Source of the DNA: a virus
Length of the DNA stretch: 64,000 bases
Direction: 5' to 3' (one strand)
IMG/VR virus record: IMGVR_UViG_2928611649_000001
Location: 1 to 64,000 of that record
Every line of letters starts with the position of its first letter. The first letter of the stretch is position 1. The notes under the pieces were generated by a model, which was not told where the DNA came from, searched no databases, and saw nothing but the letters and a program-made list of their open reading frames with translations. A program made the translations under genes and the position numbers. Shown here piece after piece: positions 3,734-52,459 of the stretch.

Positions 3734-3961
3734 TCAATTCTCCAAAACAGTTATGTCGCATGGGCGAACCGGCCCGGCGATGCCTTCCAGGTAGACGATC
3801 ATTTCCTCGTCACCCTTGTGCCAGCAGAAGCCGGCGATGAAGTACTTCAGGCCGCGGTACAAGACAGGCCGGCATTTCTGCTTGGCGCGGTGGATGCGCA
3901 TGTCGTGCTGCTCGACCAGGTCGCGCGGCGTCTCGACCGGCACCTGGTCGCGGGCGCTCAT
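3734..3961 (-). CDS. Hypothetical protein
   Basis: 75-aa ORF coupled to upstream and downstream genes. Confidence 0.3.
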   Translation of the reverse strand: MSARDQVPVETPRDLVEQHDMRIHRAKQKCRPVLYRGLKYFIAGFCWHKGDEEMIVYLEGIAGPVRPCDITVLEN

Positions 3962-4784: not shown

Positions 4785-5155
4785 GCCGCCACCTCGATCA
4801 GTTCCATCCGGATGCTGACCTCGTTATCGAAGTCTATCCGGTCGGCGCTCACCAGCTTGATGCCGTCCGATCCGTCCAGCAGCGGCCAACCTTCAACACC
4901 TTGCACGGCGAACTCGTGCACCGCGCCAAGGCCGCTGGAGATTTCTTCCGCCAGCGCCCGGCGGCAAAGCATGTTGAGCACAGCGACCACAACATCGTCG
5001 TCTGCTTCCGCCAGCCGGTCGTCGGCGCCGCTCCAAAACTCGTTAATCAGCGTGCACAGGGCGATCATCTCGTCGCTCTCAGGCGCGCGCACGTCGACGA
5101 CGACATCGCTACAGGTATCGTCGAAGGTAAGGGTGTATCGGGCCCAGGTAATCAT
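4781..5155 (-). CDS. Acidic hypothetical protein
   Basis: 124 aa, in-operon coupling. Confidence 0.4.
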   Translation of the reverse strand: MITWARYTLTFDDTCSDVVVDVRAPESDEMIALCTLINEFWSGADDRLAEADDDVVVAVLNMLCRRALAEEISSGLGAVHEFAVQGVEGWPLLDGSDGIKLVSADRIDFDNEVSIRMELIEVAA

Positions 5156-6330
5156 GCTGCCACCCCGGCCACGTTCGCCACCACGTAGACGCCCTGCGTG
5201 CTGCCGACCACGTCGGCGGCTTCCATGGCCTGCAGCAGGCTGGAGGCCCGGTTGTAGGTAATCCGCAGCACGCGCTGCACCAGCGATATCGACGCGCGGT
5301 CCTGCTCTCGCACCAGCGCCACGGCGGCCGGGTACAGTGGGTCGGTGGCACTGCCATCGCCATCCGGGATACCACCCAGCCGCATCACTGCGCGCTGCGG
5401 CTGCACCGGCTCGTCGCCGGCCGCCGGCCGCGTCACCGGAGGCTCGCCCTCAGCCACGCCGCCCAGCGCCTCGACCAGGTCCGCCAGCAGCTTGGCCAGC
5501 TCGCCGCTGACCAGCGCGAAGTCGCCATCGAAGCGCTCAGCGTCGTCCTTGGCGTAGTTTTTCTCCGTCAGCACATCCAACAGCTTCACCGACTTGACGG
5601 CCAGGCTCTGGTCCAGCACGAAGCTGATCTTGCTATCCCATGTCATGGCCAGGCGGATGCACTGCTTCCCGGCGGCGATGTGGCGGCGCAACTCGTCCGC
5701 CTCGAGCGTGTGGCGCTTCCACTGCACCTGGGCCTTGCTCTCGCCGGTCGCCTGCAGGGTGGCGTCCATGTCGACCGTGAAGCCGGCTGGCGCATCGTCC
5801 GCCTGCAGCCACTCGGTCATCACGCCCACCGGTGAGCGCTGCACGCGCAAGCTCTCGACCGGGAACTTGTCGACGGCCTTGAGCAGCAACCTGATGACCT
5901 GGTCCGCCTTCGCCGGGCTGGCCGCGCCCACCACCAGCCATCCGTTGACCGGGTCGATCCAGACCCAAGTGCTGTCGCGCTTGGGGAATGCGCGCGGCAG
6001 CAGTTCGTCGGCGACGCGCTCGCGCAACTCCTTCATCGCCTTCTTGCCGGGCGCGAAGCCTTGCGCTTCTTCCATCTCGGCGGCGCGCGCCTTCGTCACC
6101 TGGTTGATGACGGCCGCCGGAAGCACCTTGGACTCGGTCGTGAGCTTCAGCAGGAACTGGCCGTTGATGACGTGGACCAGCTCGCCGGCCGGGCGCGGCG
6201 GCTCCCAGCCCTCGCGCAGCAGTTCGTTGCTGCCGGCCGGCGCGAAGGCCTGCTGCGCCAGCATGCGGTTGAGGGACTCGGCCGAAGTCAGGAAGCCGGG
6301 CAGGCGGTACATCTGAAGATTCTTAAACAT
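5152..6330 (-). CDS. rdgC: RdgC-like recombination-associated protein fused to a C-terminal FtsK-gamma winged-helix domain
   Basis: The N-terminus MFKNLQMYRL... is RdgC-like over ~300 aa. The C-terminal ~60 aa (DPLYPAAVALVREQDRASISLVQRVLRITYNRASSLLQAMEAADVVG) matches the FtsK gamma KOPS-binding domain. Confidence 0.6.
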   Translation of the reverse strand: MFKNLQMYRLPGFLTSAESLNRMLAQQAFAPAGSNELLREGWEPPRPAGELVHVINGQFLLKLTTESKVLPAAVINQVTKARAAEMEEAQGFAPGKKAMKELRERVADELLPRAFPKRDSTWVWIDPVNGWLVVGAASPAKADQVIRLLLKAVDKFPVESLRVQRSPVGVMTEWLQADDAPAGFTVDMDATLQATGESKAQVQWKRHTLEADELRRHIAAGKQCIRLAMTWDSKISFVLDQSLAVKSVKLLDVLTEKNYAKDDAERFDGDFALVSGELAKLLADLVEALGGVAEGEPPVTRPAAGDEPVQPQRAVMRLGGIPDGDGSATDPLYPAAVALVREQDRASISLVQRVLRITYNRASSLLQAMEAADVVGSTQGVYVVANVAGVAA

Positions 6331-7513
6331 GGTCAGCCTTTTGTTGGGTTGGGGAAGGGCGGCGATAGGTTTTGGTTAGGCCGCCGTTGACGCTGTGGCC
6401 GCGCCGGAGTACTGCGCGCGCCAGCGCCGCCCGGTCGCTGCGGCTGCTGAGCGACTGTCCGAGCAGGCCGAAGTAGCTGTTGGCGGATGCGAACACCTCG
6501 TCGGCGTCGATGCGAAGCACGCGGTTGACGGCCTGGCGGACGGTGCGGCGCCGGGTGCGCGTGTTCCATGGCTTGATGACGTGGCCGACGAAGTCGATCC
6601 CGCGCGCGACCGGCTGCAAGATGGTCTTGGTCGGGTTCAGGTTCGCGTGCAGCACGCCGGGCAGGAAGGTGTTGATGTCCGTCAGCGCGGCGTTCAGCCA
6701 CTGCGGCGACTCGTGCAGCAGCACGAAGTCATCCACGTAGCGGATGTAGTGCTGGGCGCGCACGCGGTGCTTCACGTGCTGGTCCAGCGCATCGAGGTAG
6801 ACGTTCGCGAAGAACTGTGATGACAAATTCCCGATGGGAAGTCCGCGGTGGGCCGGGTGGTTGGCCAGCCGCTTGTGCGCCGGAACCAGCGCCAGCAACT
6901 CCGGCGCGCCGCGCAGTTCGAAGTTCTCACGAGGGTCATGGAACAGAATGGTTTCGGCCAAGGCCAGCCACCAGGGCTCCGTGATCCGCGCCGCCAGCTG
7001 GCCGTGCAGCACTGCCTTGTCGATGGCGACGAAGAAGTTGGCGAGGTCGCATTTCAGATACCAGACTGGCTTCGACCAGTTCTGGCTGATGCTGCGCACT
7101 TTCGCCTCCAGGCGGCCGGCGGCGTACAGCGTGCCACGGCCCGGGATGCATGCGCAGGTATCTGGAATGAATGAGGCGTAGAAGCGCGGCGCCACGTGGT
7201 TGTACAGCACATGGTGCACGATACGGTCGGGGAAGTCAGCAGCCCAGACCTCGCGCGGCTTGGGGCGGGTGACGATAAAGCAGACCGAGGTGCCGGGCTT
7301 GTACGAGCCGTCGATCAGTTCGTCGTACAGCTGGATCAGGTTGCGCTCAAGGTCCTGCTCGAACACGAGAGCGCTGGGGGTATTGCGCTTGTGGCGCCGG
7401 CAGTCGAAGTACGCGACTACCAGCTCCTCAAAAGAGAAGTCTGCATCGGGTTGATCTGCGGACGGCGCGCGCGGCGCCGGCATACGACTTGTGGTTGTTG
7501 TTCTGGTTGCCAT
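6323..7513 (-). CDS. Diversity-generating retroelement reverse transcriptase
   Basis: 396 aa. It has the YVDDFV catalytic box and LPIGNLSSQFFANVYL (the DGR-specific SQ in place of QG in motif 4). It lies directly downstream of avd and the TR. The annotated start overlaps the TR 3' end. Confidence 0.85.
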   Translation of the reverse strand: MATRTTTTSRMPAPRAPSADQPDADFSFEELVVAYFDCRRHKRNTPSALVFEQDLERNLIQLYDELIDGSYKPGTSVCFIVTRPKPREVWAADFPDRIVHHVLYNHVAPRFYASFIPDTCACIPGRGTLYAAGRLEAKVRSISQNWSKPVWYLKCDLANFFVAIDKAVLHGQLAARITEPWWLALAETILFHDPRENFELRGAPELLALVPAHKRLANHPAHRGLPIGNLSSQFFANVYLDALDQHVKHRVRAQHYIRYVDDFVLLHESPQWLNAALTDINTFLPGVLHANLNPTKTILQPVARGIDFVGHVIKPWNTRTRRRTVRQAVNRVLRIDADEVFASANSYFGLLGQSLSSRSDRAALARAVLRRGHSVNGGLTKTYRRPSPTQQKADHV

Positions 7514-7562
7514 TGTCGAAGTTCTGGTTCCAAGCGTTAGTCGGGTAGTCGGCGTGCTGCGT
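7454..7562 (-). repeat. DGR template repeat (TR), ~107-109 bp, AAC-rich on the coding strand
   Basis: The coding strand reads CAGCACGCCGACTACCCGACTAACGCTTGGAACCAGAACTTCGACAATGGCAACCAGAACAACAACCACAAGTCGTATGCCGGCGCCGCGCGCGCCGTCCGCAGAT. It matches three VRs, with mismatches almost exclusively at TR adenines. Confidence 0.85.
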
Positions 7563-7733
7563 CAATTCGTACTATCTACGTCGCCCCGGAGAAGGCTCTC
7601 GGCCGATCAGCGGGGTAACTGCGCCAGGCCTTCCCGAACACCGTCGGGCGGTTCCTGTGATGCGCGTGGCGGTGGCCTCGTGAGCCAGCGGTACGACCAG
7701 ATTAAAATTGCACAGACCTGAATGCCGTAGCGG

Positions 7734-8093
7734 TCAGGTAGCGGGCAACGATGCGGGCTTCTTCCCACGCCATCCATTGGCCTGCCGGCCGATGCTGCTG
7801 GTGATCGCGATTGCCGCGGCATACTGCGCAAGCGAGATCAGCTTCAGGTCCGTCGCCAGCCTGAACAGCAACTCCGTTACCTGGACGTGCTCGATGAGCT
7901 TGTTCAGGTAGGGCACCTTGTCGATCGCCACGTTTGCGCGATAGACGAGGGTGGAGAGCTCCAGGCATTCGGCGTTGATCTTCTGGCCGACCGTCGTTTT
8001 GAAATCTCGGCGCATGTTCTTGATGAGATTCATCGCCAGGAGCATCAGCTCGTAGGTCGCCTTGTAGATCGGCAGGTCTTTGTGGAGGGCCAT
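7734..8093 (-). CDS. avd: DGR accessory variability determinant (Avd)
   Basis: 119 aa, helical and basic at the C-terminus. Position is canonical: between the target gene/VR and the TR-RT. Confidence 0.7.
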   Translation of the reverse strand: MALHKDLPIYKATYELMLLAMNLIKNMRRDFKTTVGQKINAECLELSTLVYRANVAIDKVPYLNKLIEHVQVTELLFRLATDLKLISLAQYAAAIAITSSIGRQANGWRGKKPASLPAT

Positions 8094-8113
8094 GGGTTCC
8101 TTAAATTACTAAA

Positions 8114-8524
8114 TTACTGAATTGGCAATCTGCGGACGGCGCGCGCGGCGCCGGCATACGACTTGCGGAGGTAGTTCTGGTAGCCATCGTAGAAGTACTG
8201 GAGCCAAGCGTTAGTCGGGTAGTCGGCGTGCTGCTCGCAGGACCAGTAGTAACGTGGCTTGAAGTGCGACTTCAGGTTGGCGATCAGCAGGCTCTGCTGA
8301 CGACGAGTGGGCAGTACGCCGCCGTTCTTCTCGGCCCACGCCATCGACTTGTCCCAGTCCGCATCCAGCAACTCGCCCGGCAGCAGGAAGACATGCTCAT
8401 CTGGTGCGCCGTTCTCGCCCAGCAGCAGACCGGAGTAGGTCTCGCCCGGTTTCAGGTTCTCTACCAGAAACTGGCGCTTGCTCGCCGCCATCAGCGATTC
8501 GATTTCTGCGGTATTCGATTGCAT
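8114..8524 (-). CDS. DGR target protein 1 (C-type lectin / DUF1566-like fold), VR at its 3' end
   Basis: Start trimmed to MQSNTAEIESL, which has an AGGAGA RBS; the ORF track gives 8114..8713. The C-terminus LPTRRQQSLLIANL...YWSCEQHADYPTNAWLQYFYDGYQNYLRKSYAGAARAVRRLPIQ is encoded by VR1. Confidence 0.7.
   Translation of the reverse strand: MQSNTAEIESLMAASKRQFLVENLKPGETYSGLLLGENGAPDEHVFLLPGELLDADWDKSMAWAEKNGGVLPTRRQQSLLIANLKSHFKPRYYWSCEQHADYPTNAWLQYFYDGYQNYLRKSYAGAARAVRRLPIQ
8128..8234 (-). repeat. DGR variable repeat VR1
   Basis: 10 mismatches to TR. 9 are at TR adenines; 1 is a G-to-T (GAC to TAC). Confidence 0.8.
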
Positions 8525-16470: not shown

Positions 16471-16501
16471 ACTGGCTCCGGATCAGTTTTAAATTACTGA
16501 A

Positions 16502-17134
16502 TTACTGAATTGGCAATCTGCGGACGGCGCGCGCGGCGCCGGCATACGACTTGTGGTCGTTGCCCTGGCCGCCATTGTCGAAGACCTGGCCCCAAGCGCC
16601 AGCCGGGTAGTCGGCGTGCTGCGTGCTCGACCAGTACCACTCGTCGTCATCGAAGGCATCAGCGCCGCCGGCGCGGAAATTCTCGACCGTGGTCTGCATC
16701 GGTGATTCATCGGTGTAGGCGGTGCCCACTGGCAGGCTGCCCGGGTTCACGCCATCGATGCCATCGGCGTAGTTCTCGCGGTCGGTCGGTTTCAGGTGGC
16801 GGTATTGCAGCTCCTGCTGGTCGCGCGCCGGGATTGACCAGTCGCTGAAGCCGTTAGTCGTCAGCGCCAGGACGGCCAGCGCCAGTTCGCTGCCGGCGGC
16901 GGCCATGGCTTGGGTGTTCGACAGGCCGTCGGTGCGGCTCATGGCGCCAGCAACCAGGTCCAGCGACTCGTTCCATTTGCCGCGCAGCTCACCGGTAGCG
17001 CCGGCCGTGACGTTCGCGAACATCTGCCCGTTCTCGATCGTGATGCCGGTGAAGTAGCCGCCTTCGAGCGGTGCGCCGATGGCGGGGAGGGCGGAAGCTG
17101 CGAAGACTGGTGCTGCGGCGAGTGCTTGGTTCAT
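16502..17134 (-). CDS. DGR target protein 2 (DUF1566/C-type-lectin-like), VR at its 3' end
   Basis: 210 aa. WSIPARDQQELQY...EWYWSSTQHADYPAGAWGQVFDNGGQGNDHKSYAGAARAVRRLPIQ shares the C-terminal scaffold with target 1. Confidence 0.65.
   Translation of the reverse strand: MNQALAAAPVFAASALPAIGAPLEGGYFTGITIENGQMFANVTAGATGELRGKWNESLDLVAGAMSRTDGLSNTQAMAAAGSELALAVLALTTNGFSDWSIPARDQQELQYRHLKPTDRENYADGIDGVNPGSLPVGTAYTDESPMQTTVENFRAGGADAFDDDEWYWSSTQHADYPAGAWGQVFDNGGQGNDHKSYAGAARAVRRLPIQ
16516..16624 (-). repeat. DGR variable repeat VR2 (remote, ~9 kb from the TR)
   Basis: 12 mismatches to TR, all at TR adenines. Confidence 0.8.
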
Positions 17135-17891: not shown

Positions 17892-18116
17892 ATGCACCAA
17901 CTACATCAGGAAGATCGTCCTGGCGATGTGATGATCACGAGAACGTGTATTCCTTCCAAGGAATCCGGGACGCATCGATTGACGCAAGGAAATTTACCAG
18001 ATCCGTCCGGCCCTGGTATTGAAACCGGCCACGCCCATCTTGCGACGCCAGAACAACTGAAAGCCCTGGAAAAAGTGGTTGCGCGTCTGCCCGAGTCCTA
18101 TCTGAGTCCGAGCTAG
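17892..18116 (+). CDS. Hypothetical protein (MHQLHQEDRPGDVMITRTCIPSKESGTHRL...). Conflicts with the overlapping antisense ORF.
   Basis: Perfect GGAGG RBS 7 nt upstream. Low GC3. Overlaps 17935..18195 on the opposite strand. Confidence 0.3.
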   Translation: MHQLHQEDRPGDVMITRTCIPSKESGTHRLTQGNLPDPSGPGIETGHAHLATPEQLKALEKVVARLPESYLSPS

Positions 18117-18195
18117 TATTCATCGCAGAGGGTTTGACGATGACAATCGCAAAGGTCACCCCTTGCTCTTTGATAACCGCACCTTGAAATTTCAT
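17935..18195 (-). CDS. Hypothetical protein (MKFQGAVIKEQGVTFAIVIVKPSAM...). Conflicts with the overlapping antisense ORF.
   Basis: The minus-strand terminator lies just downstream. Low GC3. Confidence 0.3.
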   Translation of the reverse strand: MKFQGAVIKEQGVTFAIVIVKPSAMNTSSDSDRTRADAQPLFPGLSVVLASQDGRGRFQYQGRTDLVNFLASIDASRIPWKEYTFS

Positions 18196-18807
18196 GTTTT
18201 TCTTTCGTAGTTTTGGAATGCGCCCGCCGCCGGGAAGCAATCGGGCGCGTTTCATTGTAGCGAAATTGACAAGCTAAAATATCACCAATAGTCATTGGCT
18301 CCGCCGTAGCCGCACCGACTGCAGACGTAAAAAAAGCCAGCGCTGTGCGAGCCTGAGAAGGGGTTGTAAACCGTGGGGAAGAAGAGTAAATTCCGTCAGT
18401 GATGGCGGGCCGGCGCTAACCGACCCGCTTCCCACTAGGAAAGAATTCGATCAACGAGCACGTGCAAAATTGCTGCAAGCGCCCAGAGATTGATTTCCAC
18501 CTTTACTGCTTTGATCGTCAGTTTAAACATGGCAGAAGCCCTGTTTGCGCTGGCGGTACCGCCAACTGGTTGAGGGTTGGCTTATTTTTTAAAGTGCGGT
18601 TGCTTGCACTTCGCCTTGGCGCGCTGCAGCGTGCTTCGGCACCATGCTAGCGAAGTGATCCGCCCGCATGGCTCAGCTCAGTGGGTTCGATTATCCGGAA
18701 TCCACCGGGCTCTACCACCACGTCACCTTCCGCACCTTGCTGGATGCGGACATGGCTTGCGACCATGCTCTTTCGGCCCGCGCATCGGATGGCGCGCGGG
18801 CTATTCT

Positions 18808-19029
18808 TTACCCCAACTCAGCGTCGTCGCCCGCCAGACCGCCGCGCGTGCCGCCCTTGGCCAGCAGCTCGCCATCGACAAGGCCGCCCTTCGTGCCACT
18901 GGTGGCTAGCAGTTCATCGTCGACCAAGCCGCCAGTCCTTTTCGTGCCTCCGTTATCCGCCAGTTTTTTACCGTCAGGCTTGGCGACCGCGGGCGATTTC
19001 TTTGCTGGGACGTGGGATTTTTTGATCAT
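18808..19029 (-). CDS. Small protein with three KGGLVDxELLA tandem repeats
   Basis: GGAG RBS. 73 aa. Confidence 0.4.
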   Translation of the reverse strand: MIKKSHVPAKKSPAVAKPDGKKLADNGGTKRTGGLVDDELLATSGTKGGLVDGELLAKGGTRGGLAGDDAELG

Positions 19030-19147
19030 AGGCCACTCCTGCTAGTTGGATTCAAGGGGGAGTTTGTGCATTGCTCAGCTGCTGAACCCGCCAGCCAAGC
19101 GCTTGTGTAGCTGGCCGTGGCGCACCGGATGGTGCGCGGGCTATTTC

Positions 19148-19705
19148 TTATTTGGGACAATTTTCACGGATAAAGTCTACGGATTCTCTGAACCCCTTCA
19201 GGTCGATGTCCTCGCCCAGCATGCCGCCAATAATTGTTCCAATTTGAACTCGAAGTCTTTTCCCGTCATACAGCTGGTCAAAGTAAGGCTCCAGGATTAA
19301 CGAGCCCAAATCGCTTTCACTTTCGGTAGCCCTCTGCTGCCCTTGAGCAGGTTCATCATTGATCCGAACAGTGTAGTATTTCACTCCACCTCGGCCTCTC
19401 ATCGAAATGAAGAAATATCGCAACCCTCCCTGAATGTTCCAATCGCCCTTATACAACGCGACACACGACTTCTTGTCCGTCATTGCGTTGATGCTTTGGT
19501 CTACTGTCCAGAATCCGGAACGAAAGGCGGTCTTGGCTGTTGGAGTTGCCGCTTTGTTACTGGTAGAAGGCTTTTCTGTTGCAGCGCCGGTGTCATAACA
19601 AGCCAAGCGAGCCTTGTCAGCTTTAATGGATGCACAGTCTGCGCCAAAAGCGAGCACTGGCAGTGCGACGGTCGCCGTCAGAGTTAAGCGGAGAATGGGA
19701 TTCAT
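19148..19705 (-). CDS. Secreted protein (Sec signal peptide MNPILRLTLTATVALPVLAFGADC)
   Basis: 185 aa with an N-terminal signal peptide. Located in the low-GC island. Confidence 0.5.
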   Translation of the reverse strand: MNPILRLTLTATVALPVLAFGADCASIKADKARLACYDTGAATEKPSTSNKAATPTAKTAFRSGFWTVDQSINAMTDKKSCVALYKGDWNIQGGLRYFFISMRGRGGVKYYTVRINDEPAQGQQRATESESDLGSLILEPYFDQLYDGKRLRVQIGTIIGGMLGEDIDLKGFRESVDFIRENCPK

Positions 19706-19785
19706 CGAGTTCCTTGAGGCGGCAGATGCGTGCCGGGTCGCCCTGCAATTATAGGAAAATTGACAACTGGAAATCTATCGAATTG

Positions 19786-20478
19786 TCACGATCGATTTAC
19801 CATGTCCAGCACGGACTCATCGCGGCCTGCGGTGATCTCGGCGCACCTGGTGCGCAGCTTGTGTAGGACGGCCGGACCGATGCCTTTGAACGCGAGCAAC
19901 TGCTCGTCGCTGGCTTGGTCGATTCGCGCGGGCGTGTCGAGAGCCACATCCCACATCGCCAAAGCCGCATGATGGGGCAGGGTGGGCACGGTCGCCAAGA
20001 AGGTAGGGAAATAATGTTCGCATATTTCATCGACATAGTGTCCACTCAGTCCGCTGTATTTTGCCCATTCCGGCCGAGTGACTTCCGCACGCAATAAGCG
20101 GAGTCGCTCCCTTGCTGGAAGTCTCAACTCCACTACTTTGCGTAGAGCGATGAGAAATTGGGGATAGATCAGATCATAGCCATTTCTAATTGCCATCTCG
20201 AACGTCTGCCACCCAATGCCAGGATCATCCATATCTATGCCGATTTCACGCAGCGTCTTGAGCTTAGTCGACCAGTGGCCTTGATGTGAATTATCTGCAA
20301 ATTGCGGCGGGCAATAATTCAGGTCGTAGTGGCGGTACCCATGCCATTGCAGTACCGCTAGCGGGGTATCGAAGTGCAATGCGGCACGGAACTCAACGCC
20401 ATTGCATATTTCTGAATTGAGCCGTATTCCCTCAGCGCCGCCAGGCGAAATCTTGCTCCAGCATCTCCAAACCTTCAC
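19786..20478 (-). CDS. Hypothetical protein with a C-terminal helix-hairpin-helix (LLAFKGIGPAVLHKL)
   Basis: 230 aa. Confidence 0.4.
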   Translation of the reverse strand: MKVWRCWSKISPGGAEGIRLNSEICNGVEFRAALHFDTPLAVLQWHGYRHYDLNYCPPQFADNSHQGHWSTKLKTLREIGIDMDDPGIGWQTFEMAIRNGYDLIYPQFLIALRKVVELRLPARERLRLLRAEVTRPEWAKYSGLSGHYVDEICEHYFPTFLATVPTLPHHAALAMWDVALDTPARIDQASDEQLLAFKGIGPAVLHKLRTRCAEITAGRDESVLDMVNRS

Positions 20479-20496
20479 TCAACCCTCCGCGCAGCG

Positions 20497-20739
20497 TTAC
20501 TTGCTGGCCAGGTCGTGCATCTCCTTGACCAATGCTTTTGTCTCCGCACTGTCGCGCGCTAAAACGCGTAGCAAGTCGTAGATCGGGCCTGCTTGGAGCC
20601 GGTCGATAATCTCCGCGTTGAGCGTGCGGCCGTTGTACTCGGCGATCTCCATCAACTTGGCATGCAATTCTCTCGGGATTCGCAGCGATGTCTTAATGTA
20701 GTCGTCTTGCGTCGGCTTCTTGATGGGCGATTTGTTCAT
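20497..20739 (-). CDS. Arc/MetJ-type ribbon-helix-helix DNA-binding protein
   Basis: KTSLRIPRELHAKLMEIAEYNGRTLNAEIIDRL is a typical RHH. Confidence 0.5.
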   Translation of the reverse strand: MNKSPIKKPTQDDYIKTSLRIPRELHAKLMEIAEYNGRTLNAEIIDRLQAGPIYDLLRVLARDSAETKALVKEMHDLASK

Positions 20740-21049
20740 CGCCCAATTGTTTCTGACCCGCCAAGTTTTAGGCTAAAAACTCCTTCATAATGAAGGGTGA
20801 TTGTGAGAATCTGTTACTTTTCATTTCACAAGTAAAGGTTAAAAACCCCTCTACTTTTGATATGCAATCAAGGCAAACCTGTAATATAGTTAACACACTG
20901 TAAACATTTGATAGCAGAGTATTATGGAAAACTTACCCCGGATAGTTGCTGCATACGAGAAGATGGATAAGCAGGCACGCGACAAGTATGTATTGCGTAT
21001 GGAGCAGTCCGCCATCCGATACCCGATGCAGGTCCAGCAGCGTGCAAAT

Positions 21050-21436
21050 CTACGACTTGTTACTAATGAGAACCGGTGACTGAATTAGGCGCTCTGTTGC
21101 CTCGGCCTCATCTAAGATATCCCTCTGCCCCCGTTCACTAGTCGTTCGGAAGAGAGTTACCAAGTGCATTTCTTCTTCGTTCAACCAAGCGTAGAAAGGC
21201 GCGCGCGATGCGGGCGACTCGCGTGGCGGCTCAACTGGGCGCACATACTCCACGCCATCCGGCGTATCGAGATAACCGGCGCCCATCTTATATTTTTCCT
21301 CTAAGCGACGAGCGACCTTCTCCCCGAAGGAGCCATCCCCGCGCAATTGCGAAAAAAGACTCTTCTCTTGTTTTGGTATGCCGTTGTCGGCAACCCACTT
21401 GGCAAGGTTCGCTCTGCGAGTGTCAGTGATGTTCAT
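21050..21436 (-). CDS. CI-like phage repressor (HTH, no S24 peptidase domain)
   Basis: ANLAKWV..KSLFSQLRG..FGEKVARRLEEKYKMGAGYLD is a lambda/P22-type repressor HTH. Divergent from the cro-like gene. Confidence 0.55.
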   Translation of the reverse strand: MNITDTRRANLAKWVADNGIPKQEKSLFSQLRGDGSFGEKVARRLEEKYKMGAGYLDTPDGVEYVRPVEPPRESPASRAPFYAWLNEEEMHLVTLFRTTSERGQRDILDEAEATERLIQSPVLISNKS

Positions 21437-21507
21437 GCGCGCAGTTTAGTGTTTATTAAAGTAGTAATCACTTGACAGGTGGTTTAGCATTCACTAAACT
21501 CGCCTGC
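21437..21507. promoter_or_regulatory. Immunity-region divergent promoter/operator region with GTTTAG half-sites
   Basis: gtttagtg at ~21446. gtttagCATTCActaaac is an 18-bp palindrome at ~21489-21506. agtttagtg and cactaaact form an inverted pair. Confidence 0.45.
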
Positions 21508-21783
21508 ATGGACCTGAAAAAATACATCTCCGCCGAGCGCGGACGCGCCAAATCGCTTGCTGCCCACCTGGGCATCTCGCCTTCATTCCTTTCGCAAATC
21601 GCGGCAGGAACAGCGCCAGCTTCGCCATCCAGGTGCTTGGAGATCGAGAAGGGCACCGGCGGCCAAGTCACACGCAAGGACCTGCGCGAAGACTGGCGCG
21701 AAATCTGGCCCGAGCTCAAGCAATCCAACGCCAATCCCCAGCGCGCCACCACCCCGCGCAAGCCTGCGAAGGAAGTCGCATGA
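21508..21783 (+). CDS. Cro/YdaS-like HTH regulator
   Basis: LAAHLGISPSFLSQIAAG...CLEIEKGTGGQVTRKDLRED matches the YdaS/Cro family. Confidence 0.55.
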   Translation: MDLKKYISAERGRAKSLAAHLGISPSFLSQIAAGTAPASPSRCLEIEKGTGGQVTRKDLREDWREIWPELKQSNANPQRATTPRKPAKEVA

Positions 21784-21992
21784 AAACCGCTACCCAAGAT
21801 CACTTTTTGTGCGTCGTCATAGTCGCCGCTATCGCGGAAGCACGCCGCGCAGGCGATGACGTGAAAGTCGCCAGCGAGGCTGCCGCCAAGGCGTATGTGG
21901 CTGGACTAGTAGCGGCGGATGCGCCCGGCGAAAACAGCGGCGAGCGGGTTATCAGCGCTACGGGCCAGGTGGAATATCGCCCTCCGTCGTGA
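21780..21992 (+). CDS. Hypothetical protein
   Basis: 70 aa. ATGA overlaps the cro-like stop. Confidence 0.35.
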   Translation: MKTATQDHFLCVVIVAAIAEARRAGDDVKVASEAAAKAYVAGLVAADAPGENSGERVISATGQVEYRPPS

Positions 21993-22265
21993 GTAGTTTT
22001 TGCAGTTCCGCAATGGCTGTTCGAATCGGTATCTCCTGCAGCTTGGTGGAGTCCATTGGACCCTCAAGTGTCATTGGCCCCGTTATGTCGATTCTCACGT
22101 TGAGCCAGCCGAAGTCGTATGTGCCCGAAGTTTTGACTTTCCCGTTGATGAAAGTCGCAGTCATTTCTTTTTTGCAGTCCATGGGAGATCCCTTTGCAAG
22201 TTGTTGTGTGAGAACTGCAACTGTAACGCATTGGAATCTCCCGCCCATATTTTGGAAAGCACCAC

Positions 22266-23757: not shown

Positions 23758-24053
23758 TGAACATGACAGATTTCAACCGCATCCCGGTTGGGCCGCTGCT
23801 TTCCCTGGCCCAGCTCTCGATCTCCCTGCACAAGGCGCAGAACGCCGTGGCTGTTGCTCGGTTCGACTATCTCGACCGCCTGAAGAAGTTCGAGCGCAAG
23901 CGCGGCGCTGTCGGCCGGCTCGACAAGAACAACGCCGCGCACGCCGCCGCCATCGCGTACACCGCTGATGAATACGAGGCGCTGCTGGCCGCGCGGCGCA
24001 ACGCCTACAACATCAAGCGCCGCTGGCAGAACGCCTGCCGCAAGTTCAACTGA
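23758..24053 (+). CDS. Hypothetical protein
   Basis: 98 aa. Confidence 0.35.
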
Positions 24054-24075
24054 AGCACCCAACCCGGAGACACGC

Positions 24076-24591
24076 ATGGATCACGCAGACGTACTACACA
24101 TCATCGAAGACCGCACCTTCACCGCGAAGATGGGCGAGCGCACCATCACCGGCCTGATGGTCGAAAGCACCTGGAACGGGCTGACGAACTACACCGCCGC
24201 CAACGGTGCGAACCTGGTGGTGCTGGACGCCGAGCGGCGCGTGGTCACCGGCAGCGCCGCGCTGCTGGTCCACTTGGGCCTGGGCGAGCCGCAGATCGGC
24301 GCCGAGTTCAGCGGCGGCATCTACGCCGGCCTGACCGAGGTTGACGGCAAGCCGGCGCGCCTGATCATGTTGCTTCCGCACGCCGTCGATGTGTCGTGGG
24401 ATACCGCGATGGACTGGGCGAAGCTGCAAGGCGGCCACCTGCCTACGCGCGCCGAGCAGCGCACTCTCATCGAGAACGTGAAGAGTCACTTTGAGCCCCG
24501 TTGGTATTGGTCCTGCGACCAGCACGCCGACTTCCCGTCTTACGCTTGGCTCCAGCTCTTCGGCAATGGCTACCAGGTCAGCTACCACTAG
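24076..24591 (+). CDS. DGR target protein 3 (DUF1566/C-type-lectin-like), truncated by a TAG stop inside VR3
   Basis: Start at MDHADVLHII with a GGAGA RBS. C-terminus LPTRAEQRTLIENVKSHFEPRWYWSCDQHADFPSYAWLQLFGNGYQVSYH*. The downstream frame continues SYAGAARAVRRLPI. Confidence 0.65.
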   Translation: MDHADVLHIIEDRTFTAKMGERTITGLMVESTWNGLTNYTAANGANLVVLDAERRVVTGSAALLVHLGLGEPQIGAEFSGGIYAGLTEVDGKPARLIMLLPHAVDVSWDTAMDWAKLQGGHLPTRAEQRTLIENVKSHFEPRWYWSCDQHADFPSYAWLQLFGNGYQVSYH

Positions 24592-24625
24592 TCGTATGCC
24601 GGCGCCGCGCGCGCCGTCCGCAGAT
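24520..24625 (+). repeat. DGR variable repeat VR3 (remote, ~17 kb from the TR, opposite strand)
   Basis: About 14 mismatches to TR, all at TR adenines, including AAG to TAG (Lys to stop). Confidence 0.8.
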
Positions 24626-24660
24626 TGCCAATTTAATCATTCAGTAATTTAGAGGACAAG

Positions 24661-39288: not shown

Positions 39289-39376
39289 GGAAGCATGGCT
39301 GAGAGGCCGAAAGCAACGGCTTGCTAAGCCGCACGCTCGCAAGGGCGCCCAGGTTCGAATCCTGGTGCTTCCGCCA
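39289..39376 (+). tRNA. tRNA-Ser (anticodon GCU), type II with a long variable arm
   Basis: GGAAGCA...TGCTTCC acceptor stem. CCAGG-TTCGAAT-CCTGG T arm. Anticodon loop TTGCTAA. 3' GCCA. Confidence 0.7.
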
Positions 39377-39381
39377 GTTTT

Positions 39382-39455
39382 GCGGGTGTAGCTCAATGGC
39401 AGAGCTGACGCTTTCCAAGCCTATGACCAGGGTTCGATTCCCTGTACCCGCTCCA
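39382..39455 (+). tRNA. tRNA-like, probable tRNA-Gly (UCC) with an imperfect anticodon stem (possibly degenerate)
   Basis: GCGGGTG...TACCCGC acceptor stem. CAGGG-TTCGATT-CCCTG T arm. Loop TTTCCAA. The anticodon stem GACGC/GCCTA pairs at only 3 of 5 positions. Confidence 0.45.
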
Positions 39456-48951: not shown

Positions 48952-50712
48952 ATGACCATCACCACCACGATCAAAGCAGGCGACTCGCCGCAGACCATCA
49001 CGCTGCACGAGGGCAAGGCGCTGACGCTGACCGGCGCAGCTGGCGCCGTCGGTGTCGCGTACCAGCTCGACCTGGTGCTCGGCGGCACGAACTCGGTGAA
49101 GTCATGGGCGGTCGGCACTGGCGCACTGCCGCAGATCGGCCCCTACTCCGGCACGCAGAATATCCTGATCACCTGCACCGCAGGTAGTATTAATGCGACG
49201 GTGGGGGATGCGGCAGTGACGAATTCAGCCACCATCGCAAATCTCGGGAATACCTCGATCGTGCACGCTCCGCGCACCCTGCTGCTGGCTAGCGATTCCA
49301 TCGGCGCCATTTCCGAGGTCATTCTCGGCGCCACGTCGGTGGTGGACAATGGTGACGGTACCGGCACTGCGACCAAGGGGAGCACTTGGGGCGCCAGCGT
49401 CGGTGAGCCGATCCGCATCTGCTCCGCGACTACCAAGACTTTGAATGTGATGGACAGCTACATCTCGGCGATCACCAACGGCGGTAACTCGCTGGTGTTC
49501 CCACTGGGCGGCCGTACATCAACCGTGACATCGCCGTCCACACCGAGCGTGGTGTTCCCAAACCGACGTGGCTCACGCGGCTACCTGAACGCCATGGAGA
49601 TGTTCCTGGGCATTTCGTTCAAGACGACGTGGTGCGGCGTGGCGGGCGCTACGTCCACACAGATCAACACGCTGCTCAACGAGACGCCTCAGACCGGCCT
49701 GTACGATGTTGGTGTTTTTGAGCTCGGCATGAATGACGTCTACTCGGCGCTGCTGGACACGGTTACAGCCTGGCCTCTGCTGAAAGCAGCCATCGACAAC
49801 GTGCGCGGCCGGTGCGGAACGCTGCTGGCCCTCCCTATTCCCCCGCGCGACAGCAGCAGTGGGCAGTGGACGGCGCAACGCCAGACCTATCATACCCAGC
49901 TGAATCGCCTGATCTACGACTACGTGCTGTCCATCGGTGGTTACTTCATCGACACCTGGAAAGCGATGCAGAACGGCGTGACCTATGTGAATCCCGCCGC
50001 GACCAACCCGGACCCATTGACGGCATTCATGTTTGACACGACCCATCCGGCATGGCCAGGCGCATTGGCGATAGGCCGAGCTATGGCCACTCCGCTATTA
50101 CCTCGCATGGGCGCGCCAGGCTGGCAGCCATCGCACGCCAACATGCTGCTGGCGGACAGTGGAAACCTGCTGACCGATGCGGCATTCGCGGTTGATACCA
50201 ACGCCGATGGTGTCTCTGATGGCTGGGCCTTAGTCAGCACCACGGCCAATATGAGCGTCGTTCCCAGTCGCGTACAGCGCACCATCGCCACGGATGGTGA
50301 TGGTGTGGGTTACAACCAGAAACTGCTGTGCAACTACGGAACTGCTACCGGCACTGCTTCTACCAAATTCAGTAAGGCCGGCATGCAAGCGCTGGTTGCT
50401 TCGTATGTTGGGCAAAAGGTGCAGTTCAAGCTGCCATTCTCGCTCACTGGCGCTGTCGGCCTGATCGGTCTGGAGCTGACGATTATGGGTACACTCCCGA
50501 ACAGCCAGAGCTGGCAGATCTACGGGAATGCGCTCGACAGCAGCGCCAAGGCCATCACCGGATCGTTGGCCGGAACGCTGATGACGCCAGAGGCAATTGT
50601 TCCGGCGGGGCTTACGAATCTCGATATATGGGTTCGCCCCTACTTCAATTCGACGCAGACAGCAGACATGACGCTGTTGCTGTGGCAGCCGGATCTGCGC
50701 ATAGCCAGCTAG
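48952..50712 (+). CDS. SGNH/GDSL-family hydrolase domain protein (putative virion-associated esterase)
   Basis: LLLASDSIG is block I GDSx. GMNDV is block III. DTTHPA is block V DxxH. Confidence 0.55.
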   Translation: MTITTTIKAGDSPQTITLHEGKALTLTGAAGAVGVAYQLDLVLGGTNSVKSWAVGTGALPQIGPYSGTQNILITCTAGSINATVGDAAVTNSATIANLGNTSIVHAPRTLLLASDSIGAISEVILGATSVVDNGDGTGTATKGSTWGASVGEPIRICSATTKTLNVMDSYISAITNGGNSLVFPLGGRTSTVTSPSTPSVVFPNRRGSRGYLNAMEMFLGISFKTTWCGVAGATSTQINTLLNETPQTGLYDVGVFELGMNDVYSALLDTVTAWPLLKAAIDNVRGRCGTLLALPIPPRDSSSGQWTAQRQTYHTQLNRLIYDYVLSIGGYFIDTWKAMQNGVTYVNPAATNPDPLTAFMFDTTHPAWPGALAIGRAMATPLLPRMGAPGWQPSHANMLLADSGNLLTDAAFAVDTNADGVSDGWALVSTTANMSVVPSRVQRTIATDGDGVGYNQKLLCNYGTATGTASTKFSKAGMQALVASYVGQKVQFKLPFSLTGAVGLIGLELTIMGTLPNSQSWQIYGNALDSSAKAITGSLAGTLMTPEAIVPAGLTNLDIWVRPYFNSTQTADMTLLLWQPDLRIAS

Positions 50713-51899
50713 TCATCCCCACCTGCTAGCTTTCCTTTGCCTCGTTTATGTTTATTTAAGAATGGTCGGATTTCTGCCCACGCTGCCTTAAGTATTCGGT
50801 CGTATTCCAGGGCACGTTGCTGCTGCTCAAGAGTAGAAAGTATGGCCGTGACATCGGCTTTGCTATCAAGTACTTCCCCAAATTTCTGCTCAACGTTTGC
50901 AACAACTTCAATCGCAAGCGGAAGTACGTCGTCGATTGTAAGCGGCGGATGATTTCCTTCCATGGCAAGCGTTTGCATCATTACGAGAACCCAGCTCATC
51001 CTAATCGGGAGCGGAGGATGGGTCTTACCAATTGCAATCTCTCCGTCCCATGGGGATGGGTTCAGCATCCGGAAAAAGGTATATCCAGCGATAACGGTGG
51101 AGGAAACAACAGCCTGCACCGTGCCATATAGGCAGTGCTGTGCGAGCGATCTGAAATAAGTATTCAAATCTGCAACACTAGCGTTTGCGTTGAGTATAGG
51201 TAACTCAGCATCTTGGTATTCGGCCAATCTGCTTAGGCCCCATTGGAGTTGGATTAACACTGCATTGCAGTCCGCGTCCATTTCTAGGGCCTGGCGGTAC
51301 AACCAATCCGGCGCTTCTTCGGTGTTAATCATTTCAATCATTTGTGTTTGCCGGAAAGTATTAACGAGTTCTAGATGACCGTTCTTCACATGGGCGAATT
51401 CATGGCGGATCAGAAATTCCATAGATGCAATTGCCATTTGATGGGCACAAAAATATCTAAGAATATCGGAACAGGTTAGTCCATCAGCGCTGACGTACCG
51501 TGGATCGATTTGTATACTTTTCCAGTTTTCGCCCGGTAGATCAGGGATAGACCCGACATCGAGAGAATCGGGCGAGGCATATAGCGCTACAAACCAACTG
51601 AATGCAGTAATTATTGAGCCTGAATAGATTCCAATGAGATCGGTCTCGCTTGGCCCAGCTTTAGTGGCGTAACAGGTTGCGTTTGAATTCTCGTTTGATA
51701 TCACCTCTAGCACGAGAGGACGTTGACCGTCGAGATAAAAGTGCCTTCGCATAGTCTCGCATGAATTGCGAAAGATCGGAATGCTCTGACTTATTGCCGC
51801 CACGTGCCCGGCTGGCATCCAGTCTGCGGGTTCGAACCTGCCGCCCTTGCTGGCAATAAAGCGCTCGAGTTCTTCATTGTAGGTTTCTTCAATTGCCAT
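50709..51899 (-). CDS. Reverse-strand moron: 396-aa protein with an HExxH motif (LIRHEFAHVKNGH), low GC
   Basis: Opposite strand within the head-tail operon. AT-rich relative to flanks. HEFAH resembles ImmA/IrrE-type zinc peptidase motifs. Confidence 0.5.
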   Translation of the reverse strand: MAIEETYNEELERFIASKGGRFEPADWMPAGHVAAISQSIPIFRNSCETMRRHFYLDGQRPLVLEVISNENSNATCYATKAGPSETDLIGIYSGSIITAFSWFVALYASPDSLDVGSIPDLPGENWKSIQIDPRYVSADGLTCSDILRYFCAHQMAIASMEFLIRHEFAHVKNGHLELVNTFRQTQMIEMINTEEAPDWLYRQALEMDADCNAVLIQLQWGLSRLAEYQDAELPILNANASVADLNTYFRSLAQHCLYGTVQAVVSSTVIAGYTFFRMLNPSPWDGEIAIGKTHPPLPIRMSWVLVMMQTLAMEGNHPPLTIDDVLPLAIEVVANVEQKFGEVLDSKADVTAILSTLEQQQRALEYDRILKAAWAEIRPFLNKHKRGKGKLAGGDD

Positions 51900-51937
51900 C
51901 GTCGCCTCTAATAAACTTGACCATTGGGAATATTATT

Positions 51938-52459
51938 ATGGCACTAAATGTCGAAACCGGCGCCGGCCTGGCGAATGCCGAGAGCTACATCTCGGTCGCG
52001 GACGCGACGACTTACCACGCGAACCTCGGCAACTCCGCATGGGCGGCGCTGGCGTCCGACACCGTGCGCGAGCAGCTCTTGCGCCAAGCGACCGAGTACA
52101 TGGTTGGCCAGTACCGCGACAACTGGAAGGGTCAGCGCACGAGCGCCACGCAGGCGCTGGACTGGCCGCGCTACAACGTGCAACTTCCCGATGTCGGCAT
52201 TGGCCGATATCCCGCCTACGTCCAGCCCAACGTCGTCCCGGTCGAGGTGGCGAACGCCTGCGCCGTTCTGGCGCTGCAAGCCATCAGCGGCCCGCTGGCG
52301 CCGAACCTGGAACGCACCATCAAGCAGGACACGGTCGGCCCGCTGACGACAATCTACGCTGATGGGGCTCCAGAGCGGCCGCGCTACACGGCCGTCGACA
52401 ACATGCTGAAGGTGTACTTGGCCGGATCGGGCACGTCGGGAAGGTTGGTACGCGGATGA
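51938..52459 (+). CDS. Head-tail connector / adaptor candidate
   Basis: Position only. 173 aa. Confidence 0.4.
   Translation: MALNVETGAGLANAESYISVADATTYHANLGNSAWAALASDTVREQLLRQATEYMVGQYRDNWKGQRTSATQALDWPRYNVQLPDVGIGRYPAYVQPNVVPVEVANACAVLALQAISGPLAPNLERTIKQDTVGPLTTIYADGAPERPRYTAVDNMLKVYLAGSGTSGRLVRG

Follow-up and report, generated by a model that had tools for sequence, protein, structure and literature searches.

How does the complementary DNA (cDNA) of a diversity-generating retroelement (DGR) find and enter a variable region (VR), and why is the template repeat (TR) spared? The question is raised by a DGR in the IMG/VR virus record IMGVR_UViG_2928611649_000001, of which positions 1 to 64,000 were analysed; this whole 64-kb stretch is referred to here as the window. 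Each of its three VRs is followed directly, on the 3' side, by an array of short direct repeats. The array is specific to VRs and to the DGR lineage, its units are phased, and what is conserved is the pattern. To our knowledge, the defined target-side elements of DGRs all come from one phage, BPP-1, whose initiation of mutagenic homing (IMH) site was reportedly described by Doulatov in 2004. We lean, with some reserve, towards the view that the array is a lineage-specific counterpart of the distal 21 bp of that site and may act as a cis element marking VRs as recipients.

Variable regions and their 3' arrays

All three VRs close on the same GC-rich end, ...CCGCAGAT, and then run into three head-to-tail 8-bp units, TGCCAATT CAGTAATT TAGTAATT or close variants (Table 1). 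On the minus strand, VR1 ends ...GCGCGCGCCGTCCGCAGAT at position 8128, and its array is followed by TAAGGAACCC and the ATG of avd (8093). A 28-bp GC-rich block, GCCGGCGCCGCGCGCGCCGTCCGCAGAT (8128-8155 in VR1), is identical in the TR and all three VRs, and the window contains exactly four copies of the shared GC-rich core, one in the TR and one in each VR. After the shared end, the TR continues with CAACCCGATGCAGAC, which encodes the N-terminus of the reverse transcriptase (RT) and contains no units. In a position-by-position count, the VR array and the TR flank agree at 7/26 positions. The initial annotation, which had described a flank present at the VRs and absent from the TR, is confirmed at all three VRs, as the TR enters the RT gene. 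The two tandem repeats that it had recognised are actually three 8-bp units, of which TGCCAATT is the first.

The repeat AGTAATTT occurs four times in the window, every time at a VR (0.36 expected), and of the degenerate two-unit pattern TTYANYMMTTYANYMMTT, derived from relatives, only the three VR flanks provide a match (0.02 expected). No copy of either was found in the window at the TR or elsewhere away from a VR. The array always has the orientation of its VR, including VR3 on the opposite strand. Among the three VRs, the arrays are 85-96% identical and the upstream target coding sequences 62-70%, and the 60 nt downstream of the arrays are 53-58% identical, which is the background of unrelated sequence. 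The array is a discrete, sharply bounded conserved block. Upstream of its VR, target 2 is only 62% identical to the others (unrelated 60-mers reach 56%, a background that refers to 60-mers and not to 200 nt), whereas its array is 96% identical to that of VR1. All copy-to-copy differences in the window arrays fit the degenerate consensus given below.

The first 9-15 nt of the array are target coding sequence, the targets ending ...RRLPIQ* or ...RRLPI*, and the stop codon of target 1 (TAA, 8116-8114) lies within unit 2 of the VR1 array. Because the 8-bp period is not a multiple of three and the array extends past the stop codon, a coding repeat cannot explain it. As had been noted initially, the array runs directly into the ribosome-binding site and start codon of the next gene, the ATG lying 10, 22 and 11 nt past the arrays of VR1, VR2 and VR3. 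The window array has about 17% GC in a genome of 62-65% GC. Scans of the three elements for sigma-70 promoters (hexamers with correct spacing) and intrinsic terminators (GC stem and T-run) were negative.

Conservation in the RT-15 lineage

Conservation was followed in a lineage set defined by RTs 60-94% identical to that of the window, comprising 68 unique VR 3' flanks from 31 loci. The sources were Burkholderia phage Magia, Shewanella phage QDWS, the Pseudomonas phages Cruim01, SC_8_H2H8 and Haboob, IMG/VR contigs, and Burkholderiales and Pseudomonas genomes; TR/VR pairs were found by a script requiring adenine-specific mismatches. The RT-15 RNA was present in 12/12 of the loci tested from this lineage, in each case immediately next to the TR on its 5' side.

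Over the first 40 nt of the 68 VR flanks, autocorrelation reaches 0.465 at lag 8 and 0.409 at lag 16, compared with 0.27 (standard deviation 0.009) in shuffles, 0.224 in TR flanks and 0.240 in the region 45-85 nt downstream. Of the 68 VR flanks, 59 contain three or more TT dinucleotides at exact 8-bp spacing, a pattern seen in only 2/33 TR flanks and in about 1% of windows drawn at random from these loci. The unit consensus is Y-A-N-Y-M-M-T-T; beyond the TT used for phasing, A at position 2 is conserved at 82% and a pyrimidine at position 4 at 95%, and G is absent from position 6 and makes up at most 10% at positions 4 and 5. Three units are present in 41 flanks and four in 17. The search of related DGRs that the initial annotation had proposed thus recovers a phased array after VRs, and not after TRs, throughout the lineage.

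The unit sequences themselves vary widely among loci (CAGTAATT, TAACCCTT, GACGCCTT, CAACCATT). Relatives use, for example, GACGCCTT GAACGCTT GACCACTT, and GACGCCTT-like units have about 50% GC. The AT-richness and the word AGTAATTT, both correctly seen at the window VRs at first, are therefore local details, and the phased pattern is what is kept. The two-unit pattern TTYANYMMTTYANYMMTT matches at 23 places in 585 kb of lineage loci, each of them the 3' end of a VR, and nowhere in 674 kb of control loci of the BPP-1 lineage.

Metagenome contigs were also scanned by the GC core alone (CGCGCCGTCCGCAGAT), blind to the flank. This gave 131 matches, mostly unrelated GC-rich DNA. About 25 VR-type flanks in a DGR context yielded 19 arrays and two near-arrays, and arrays were seen in 0/~96 non-DGR matches and in 0/10 TR-like flanks, which were recognised by an RT N-terminus motif (nine are genuine TRs, and the tenth, at locus L295, is a chance match of the motif).

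In the lineage flanks, the array is present whether a ribosome-binding site and gene or a GC hairpin comes next, and it is commoner than the hairpin. Many relatives (loci L005, L006, L013, L027, L028, L030, L033 and others) have a GC hairpin with a 3-nt GNA loop (GCA, GTA or GAA) after the array, with the conserved tract TTCGCG...ATTTTTT(C)AG(C)ATG connecting the hairpin to the following gene. Neither feature is present at the three VRs of the window.

One VR, ending at position 3931 of locus L004, carries no phased array, and 5/18 of its TR mismatches do not lie at adenines; this single VR may be decaying and no longer targeted. The general idea that array-less VRs are decaying was dropped: non-adenine mismatches amount to 6.3% in these VRs versus 2.0% in the rest, but the gap is driven by this one VR, and the filter applied in the analysis biases the figure.

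It could be argued that the array has no present function, but rides along with VR cassettes (duplicated target 3' ends) or arises by slippage, and that it seems conserved because the copies are young. The likeness of the arrays of different VRs within a locus (L023, L028) fits duplication, and short tandem repeats arise easily. However, at 60% RT identity the units have diverged, yet the phasing, the copy number and Y-A-N-Y-M-M-T-T persist. A mere passenger also fits poorly with the background-level similarity directly downstream, even within the window, with target 2, whose array matches that of VR1 so much better than its upstream sequence does, and with a second lineage that keeps its own phased unit. 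An array without function is highly improbable.

Flanks in other DGR lineages

This second lineage is that of the RT-14 RNA (BalMu-1, FP_Lagaffe and relatives of Aeromonas phage phiARM81mr), whose RTs are about 35-38% identical to that of the window and in which the RT-14 RNA lies between TR and RT. At least three CTG at 7-8-bp spacing, with the unit RWAATCTG, are found in 37/55 unique VR flanks, versus 0.5% of random windows. These arrays (loci L124-L211, L123, L216, L212) comprise three to four units, and a GC hairpin with a GRNA loop usually comes next. They resemble the window array in lying between the IMH core and the hairpin and in containing the target stop codon, and they differ in their unit, in a mixed 7/8-bp period and in an RNA that is 3' rather than 5' of the TR. 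In cross-tests, no CTG chains were found in RT-15-lineage flanks and no TT chains of 8-bp spacing in RT-14-lineage flanks. Individual members vary: FP_Lagaffe has four units, VHML two TAACTG, and phiARM81mr a 7-bp repeat of the CTTGAGC type. It may be that phased arrays are common at DGR targets and have escaped description.

In the BPP-1 lineage, three phased TT were found in 0/53 unique VR flanks, and there is no 8-bp signal. In these flanks a single word, GTGACCACCTGnnnnCTTGA, precedes a GC hairpin whose loop is GRNA, and the RNA of the lineage is the Rfam family Phage_DGR, 3' of the TR. An attempt to read the 21 bp of BPP-1 as three phased TGA motifs that are broken in the TR counterpart of the site, IMH*, was abandoned: it was post hoc, the middle motif is not conserved in the lineage, and the flanks are aperiodic. 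Two phages of Pseudomonas aeruginosa differ within this one host species: Haboob, of the RT-15 type, has the array, and Bise, with a BPP-1-like flank, does not. The flank type therefore tracks the DGR lineage and not the host.

This comparison bears on the possibility that the array acts through DNA mechanics or host replication, either as an easily melted or slippage-prone tract beside the GC block or as a replisome signal, and so exposes the VR sense strand for cDNA annealing. The low GC content of the window array in its GC-rich genome would fit such a role, as would the slipped structures possible in tandem repeats and the GNA-triloop hairpins that often follow the array in relatives. Reconstituted BPP-1 editing, moreover, depends on the direction of replication, and its authors suggest that structure in the flank keeps the DNA single-stranded for longer (PMC12875486). 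Against this, AT-richness is not conserved, as the GACGCCTT-type units illustrate; the conserved features are position-specific; single-stranded folds of the three window flanks show no significant structure (z -0.4 to -1.5); and the difference between Haboob and Bise speaks against a host-generic signal. An effect of this kind is quite unlikely.

The flanks also bear on a role in gene expression, in which the array, with stops in all frames, would be a G-poor, unstructured spacer that insulates the next ribosome-binding site from the GC-rich VR, or would end spurious translation from the VR copy of the RT start. Stops are enriched in the array, with a mean of 2.19 frames closed versus 1.26 in shuffles; 27/59 arrays, among them the three of the window, close every frame. 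The RT ATG lies inside each VR, its frame ending at the third unit junction, and in the window the next ribosome-binding site follows within 10-22 nt of the array. However, the stop enrichment is automatic from the TT-Y-A-R junction, 16/59 arrays close one frame only, and many relatives have a GC hairpin and a T-run between array and next gene, so that there is no ribosome-binding site to insulate. An expression device would also leave unexplained the strict 8-bp phasing, the preference for three to four copies, the pyrimidine at position 4, the A or C at position 6, and the different phased unit (AATCTG) of another DGR lineage. We consider it decidedly improbable.

Proposed role of the array

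The array stands in the position of the distal half of the BPP-1 IMH, has a similar length and the same stop-codon overlap, and nothing else distinguishes VR ends consistently from TR ends; the array is therefore read as a putative recipient-marking element. In this scheme, mutagenised cDNA from the TR would pair with the shared GC block, a step possible at TR and VR alike. With the array on VRs only, only VRs would be accepted as recipients, and the flow from TR to VR would be one-way. We infer that the array is required for retrohoming and that the DGR's own machinery reads it. The reader would be a DGR-encoded component (the RT, Avd or their ribonucleoprotein, RNP), probably making repeated contacts. 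A DGR-encoded reader appears most likely because the unit sequence tracks the DGR lineage and the RNA family and not the host, and a run of three to four phased units points to an oligomer that makes contact repeatedly. The suggestion of the initial annotation that the flank marks VRs as recipients is strongly supported by the lineage-wide asymmetry between VR and TR, but has to be qualified insofar as part of the element is target C-terminal coding sequence and stop codon.

Several observations weigh against a recipient-marking role. Unit 1 is partly constrained by the C-terminal residues of the target, and the offset of the array from the GC core is variable (+4 in 25/59, +5 to +13 in the others). 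Fewer than three phased units are present in 9/68 lineage VRs, and eight of these nine still have 0-1 non-adenine mismatches, so homing may be enhanced by the array without depending on it. At the three window VRs, no hairpin or cruciform of the BPP-1 type (a GC-rich inverted repeat of 7-10 bp that closes a 4-nt GRNA loop and lies 4-34 bp beyond the VR on the 3' side) is present. BPP-1 needs this hairpin for efficient homing, which makes a direct analogy with BPP-1 incomplete. Ungapped complementarity between the array and the DGR RNA (RT-15, TR and 250 nt) gave equal scores within and across loci, and the same crude ungapped measure gave mean z values of 0.16 and -0.10 relative to shuffled arrays. 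Finally, no protein that reads the array was found.

Three candidate mechanisms were tried and rejected. Pairing of the array with the DGR RNA gave no signal in the RT-15 lineage, and for the weak antisense signal seen in the RT-14 lineage, leftover resemblance between IMH and IMH* is the simplest explanation. Mimicry of the single-stranded AAUUUUGAAUC segment of RT-15, suggested by visual comparison, is a composition effect, the local alignment scoring 10.83 versus 10.81 for shuffled flanks. FtsK gamma domains read 8-bp FtsK-orienting polar sequence (KOPS) motifs, which is why an RdgC-FtsK-gamma fusion encoded beside the RT was considered as a reader. However, RdgC has no constant position, it is near the DGR in only 6/35 lineage loci, and apart from the window only locus L008 has the fusion.

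The recipient-marking role could be extended to other lineages. Phased 7-8-nt arrays between the IMH GC block and the hairpin would then be a general address label of DGRs, recognised while the target DNA is briefly single-stranded by an oligomeric protein of the DGR such as a pentameric Avd ring or an RT-Avd RNP. Each lineage would have its own unit, Y-A-N-Y-M-M-T-T with RT-15, RWAATCTG with RT-14 and a degenerate form in BPP-1, and each subunit of the reader would take one unit; target recognition, the step still missing in mutagenic retrohoming, would thereby be accounted for. The ring proteins TRAP and HutP bind phased short repeats and offer an analogy. The extension is speculative, and we consider it unlikely.

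The DGR locus and its surroundings

The minus-strand region at about 6.3-8.5 kb is a complete phage-type DGR with the classic order target-avd-TR-RT (Table 1). A DGR-type RT (RVT_1 match, E 6e-14), 60-94% identical to the RTs of annotated DGR phages such as Magia, stands beside a TR that overlaps its start. The three TR/VR pairs differ almost solely at TR adenines, and the locus encodes the accessory protein Avd as well as a C-type-lectin-type target whose 3' end holds a VR. The bAvd score of 38.6 bits is slightly below the curated cut-off of 40, and Lcl_C (DUF1566) matches all three targets, each under its cut-off. The layout departs from that of BPP-1: the RT-15 RNA is 5' of the TR, and the RT open reading frame (ORF) begins within the TR, leaving no TR-RT spacer. 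In BPP-1 (Phage_DGR RNA) and BalMu-1 (RT-14), unlike in the window, the structured RNA is 3' of the TR.

Table 1. Features of the DGR and its variable regions in the window.
Feature	Position	Strand	Description
DGR reverse transcriptase ORF (RVT_1)	6323..7513	minus	candidate ATGs 7513 and 7483, both within TR
Template repeat (TR)	7454..7562	minus	3' flank CAACCCGATGCAGAC... is RT coding sequence, no array
RT-15 RNA motif	7560..7750	minus	Rfam RF03018, 163 bits; abuts TR 5' end
avd	7734..8093	minus	bAvd-like four-helix-bundle protein; ATG 8093, ribosome-binding site AAGGA 8102-8098 directly after VR1 array
VR1 array	8104..8127	minus	3 x 8 bp: TGCCAATT (8127-8120), CAGTAATT (8119-8112), TAGTAATT (8111-8104)
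Target gene 1	8114..8524	minus	~136 aa, Lcl_C/DUF1566-type C-terminal domain, ends RRLPIQ*, VR1 at 3' end
VR1	8128..8234	minus	107 bp; 10 mismatches to TR, 9 at TR adenines
VR2 array	16492..16515	minus	TGCCAATT CAGTAATT CAGTAATT
Target 2	16502..17134	minus	Lcl_C; stop TAA 16504-16502
VR2	16516..16624	minus	109 bp; 12/12 mismatches at TR adenines; 3' end of target 2
VR3	24520..24625	plus	106 bp; 14/14 mismatches at TR adenines; 3' end of Lcl_C/DUF1566-type gene
VR3 array	24626..24649	plus	TGCCAATT TAATCATT CAGTAATT

VR3 contains an in-frame TAG (24589-24591, plus strand) where the TR codon is AAG, at an adenine position, so that target 3 spans 23968-24591 and is stripped of its final 14 residues, SYAGAARAVRRLPI. 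It looks as if the DGR has inactivated one of its own targets. The TR carries this AAG codon, which is able to mutate to a stop; the usual codon is AAC.

At 5152-6330 on the minus strand, an ORF overlapping the RT stop has a product in which an RdgC domain (E 2e-103) is joined at its C-terminal side to an FtsK-gamma DNA-binding domain (E 1e-16); in five lineage loci other than the window and L008, RdgC without this fusion lies near the DGR. The plus strand carries two adjacent tRNA genes at 39289-39452, and low-GC islands at 18001-22000 and 50001-52000 have a GC fraction of 0.52-0.55, versus about 0.63 elsewhere in the window. The region looks like a prophage, with the DGR in the early/recombination module and not among the tail genes.

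Implications

The integration step of DGRs is incompletely understood (PMC12875486, 2026). VR-specific cis elements are already known; the phased direct-repeat form, its lineage-wide conservation and a second lineage with another unit were not found described, in a literature coverage that is incomplete and leaves room for a prior description. Phased VR-flank arrays are not mentioned in PMC3240598, PMC5758913, PMC12875486, PMC10743442, 10.1101/2024.11.15.621889 or PMC5737381, and no description of the RT-14 arrays was found in the searchable literature. The array offers a concrete determinant to mutate, as unit number, spacing and sequence can all be varied, and a bait for the factor reading it. 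It is also a simple signature by which remote VRs can be located and VR told from TR in annotation. If the proposed function is true, it would supply design rules for porting DGRs other than that of BPP-1 into directed-evolution systems.

Comparison with known target-site elements

The IMH of BPP-1 has two parts, a block of G and C only, which the TR shares unchanged and inside which cDNA integration was mapped, and a distal 21 bp that differs from the TR at 5 positions and sets the direction of transfer (PMC3240598). The first part has its equivalent in the window, where the GC-rich block at the VR end is identical in the TR. A near-identical distal stretch of about 21 bp at the TR, as in the IMH* of BPP-1, is not present, the homology stopping at ...CAGAT. 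The initial statement that IMH and IMH* are undifferentiated here therefore holds for the GC block; under the BPP-1 definition, which includes the distal part of about 21 bp, the low agreement of the flanks means that the two are fully differentiated.

The distal element of BPP-1 and the window array both lie directly 3' of the GC-only block shared by VR and TR, measure about 21-26 bp, are VR-specific, and overlap the end of the target ORF with its stop codon. They differ in that the TR of BPP-1 has the near-copy IMH* (5 mismatches in 21), whereas the TR flank of the window is unrelated, and in that the BPP-1-lineage element is one non-periodic word, whereas the window has three phased 8-bp units. 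The recipient role of the BPP-1 element was established by experiment; the window lineage is known from sequence comparison. Wu et al. pointed out that in some DGRs IMH equals IMH*, so that recognition would have to extend downstream (PMC5758913).

A hairpin further 3' of the BPP-1 IMH increases homing efficiency (PMC3240598). This hairpin/cruciform of Guo 2011 resembles the array in being a cis element confined to VRs, where it lies 3' of the IMH, and missing at the TR, and many relatives of the window have a GC hairpin after the array. It is built from inverted repeats, whereas the array consists of direct repeats, and the loops of the relatives are GNA triloops and not the GRNA tetraloop. 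Group IIC introns, finally, are addressed by a terminator stem-loop read in single-stranded DNA and not by direct repeats, and they are mobile introns rather than agents of cDNA replacement. They are nevertheless retroelements related to DGR RTs whose address, like the array, is a non-homologous DNA feature beside the insertion point (PMC3240598).
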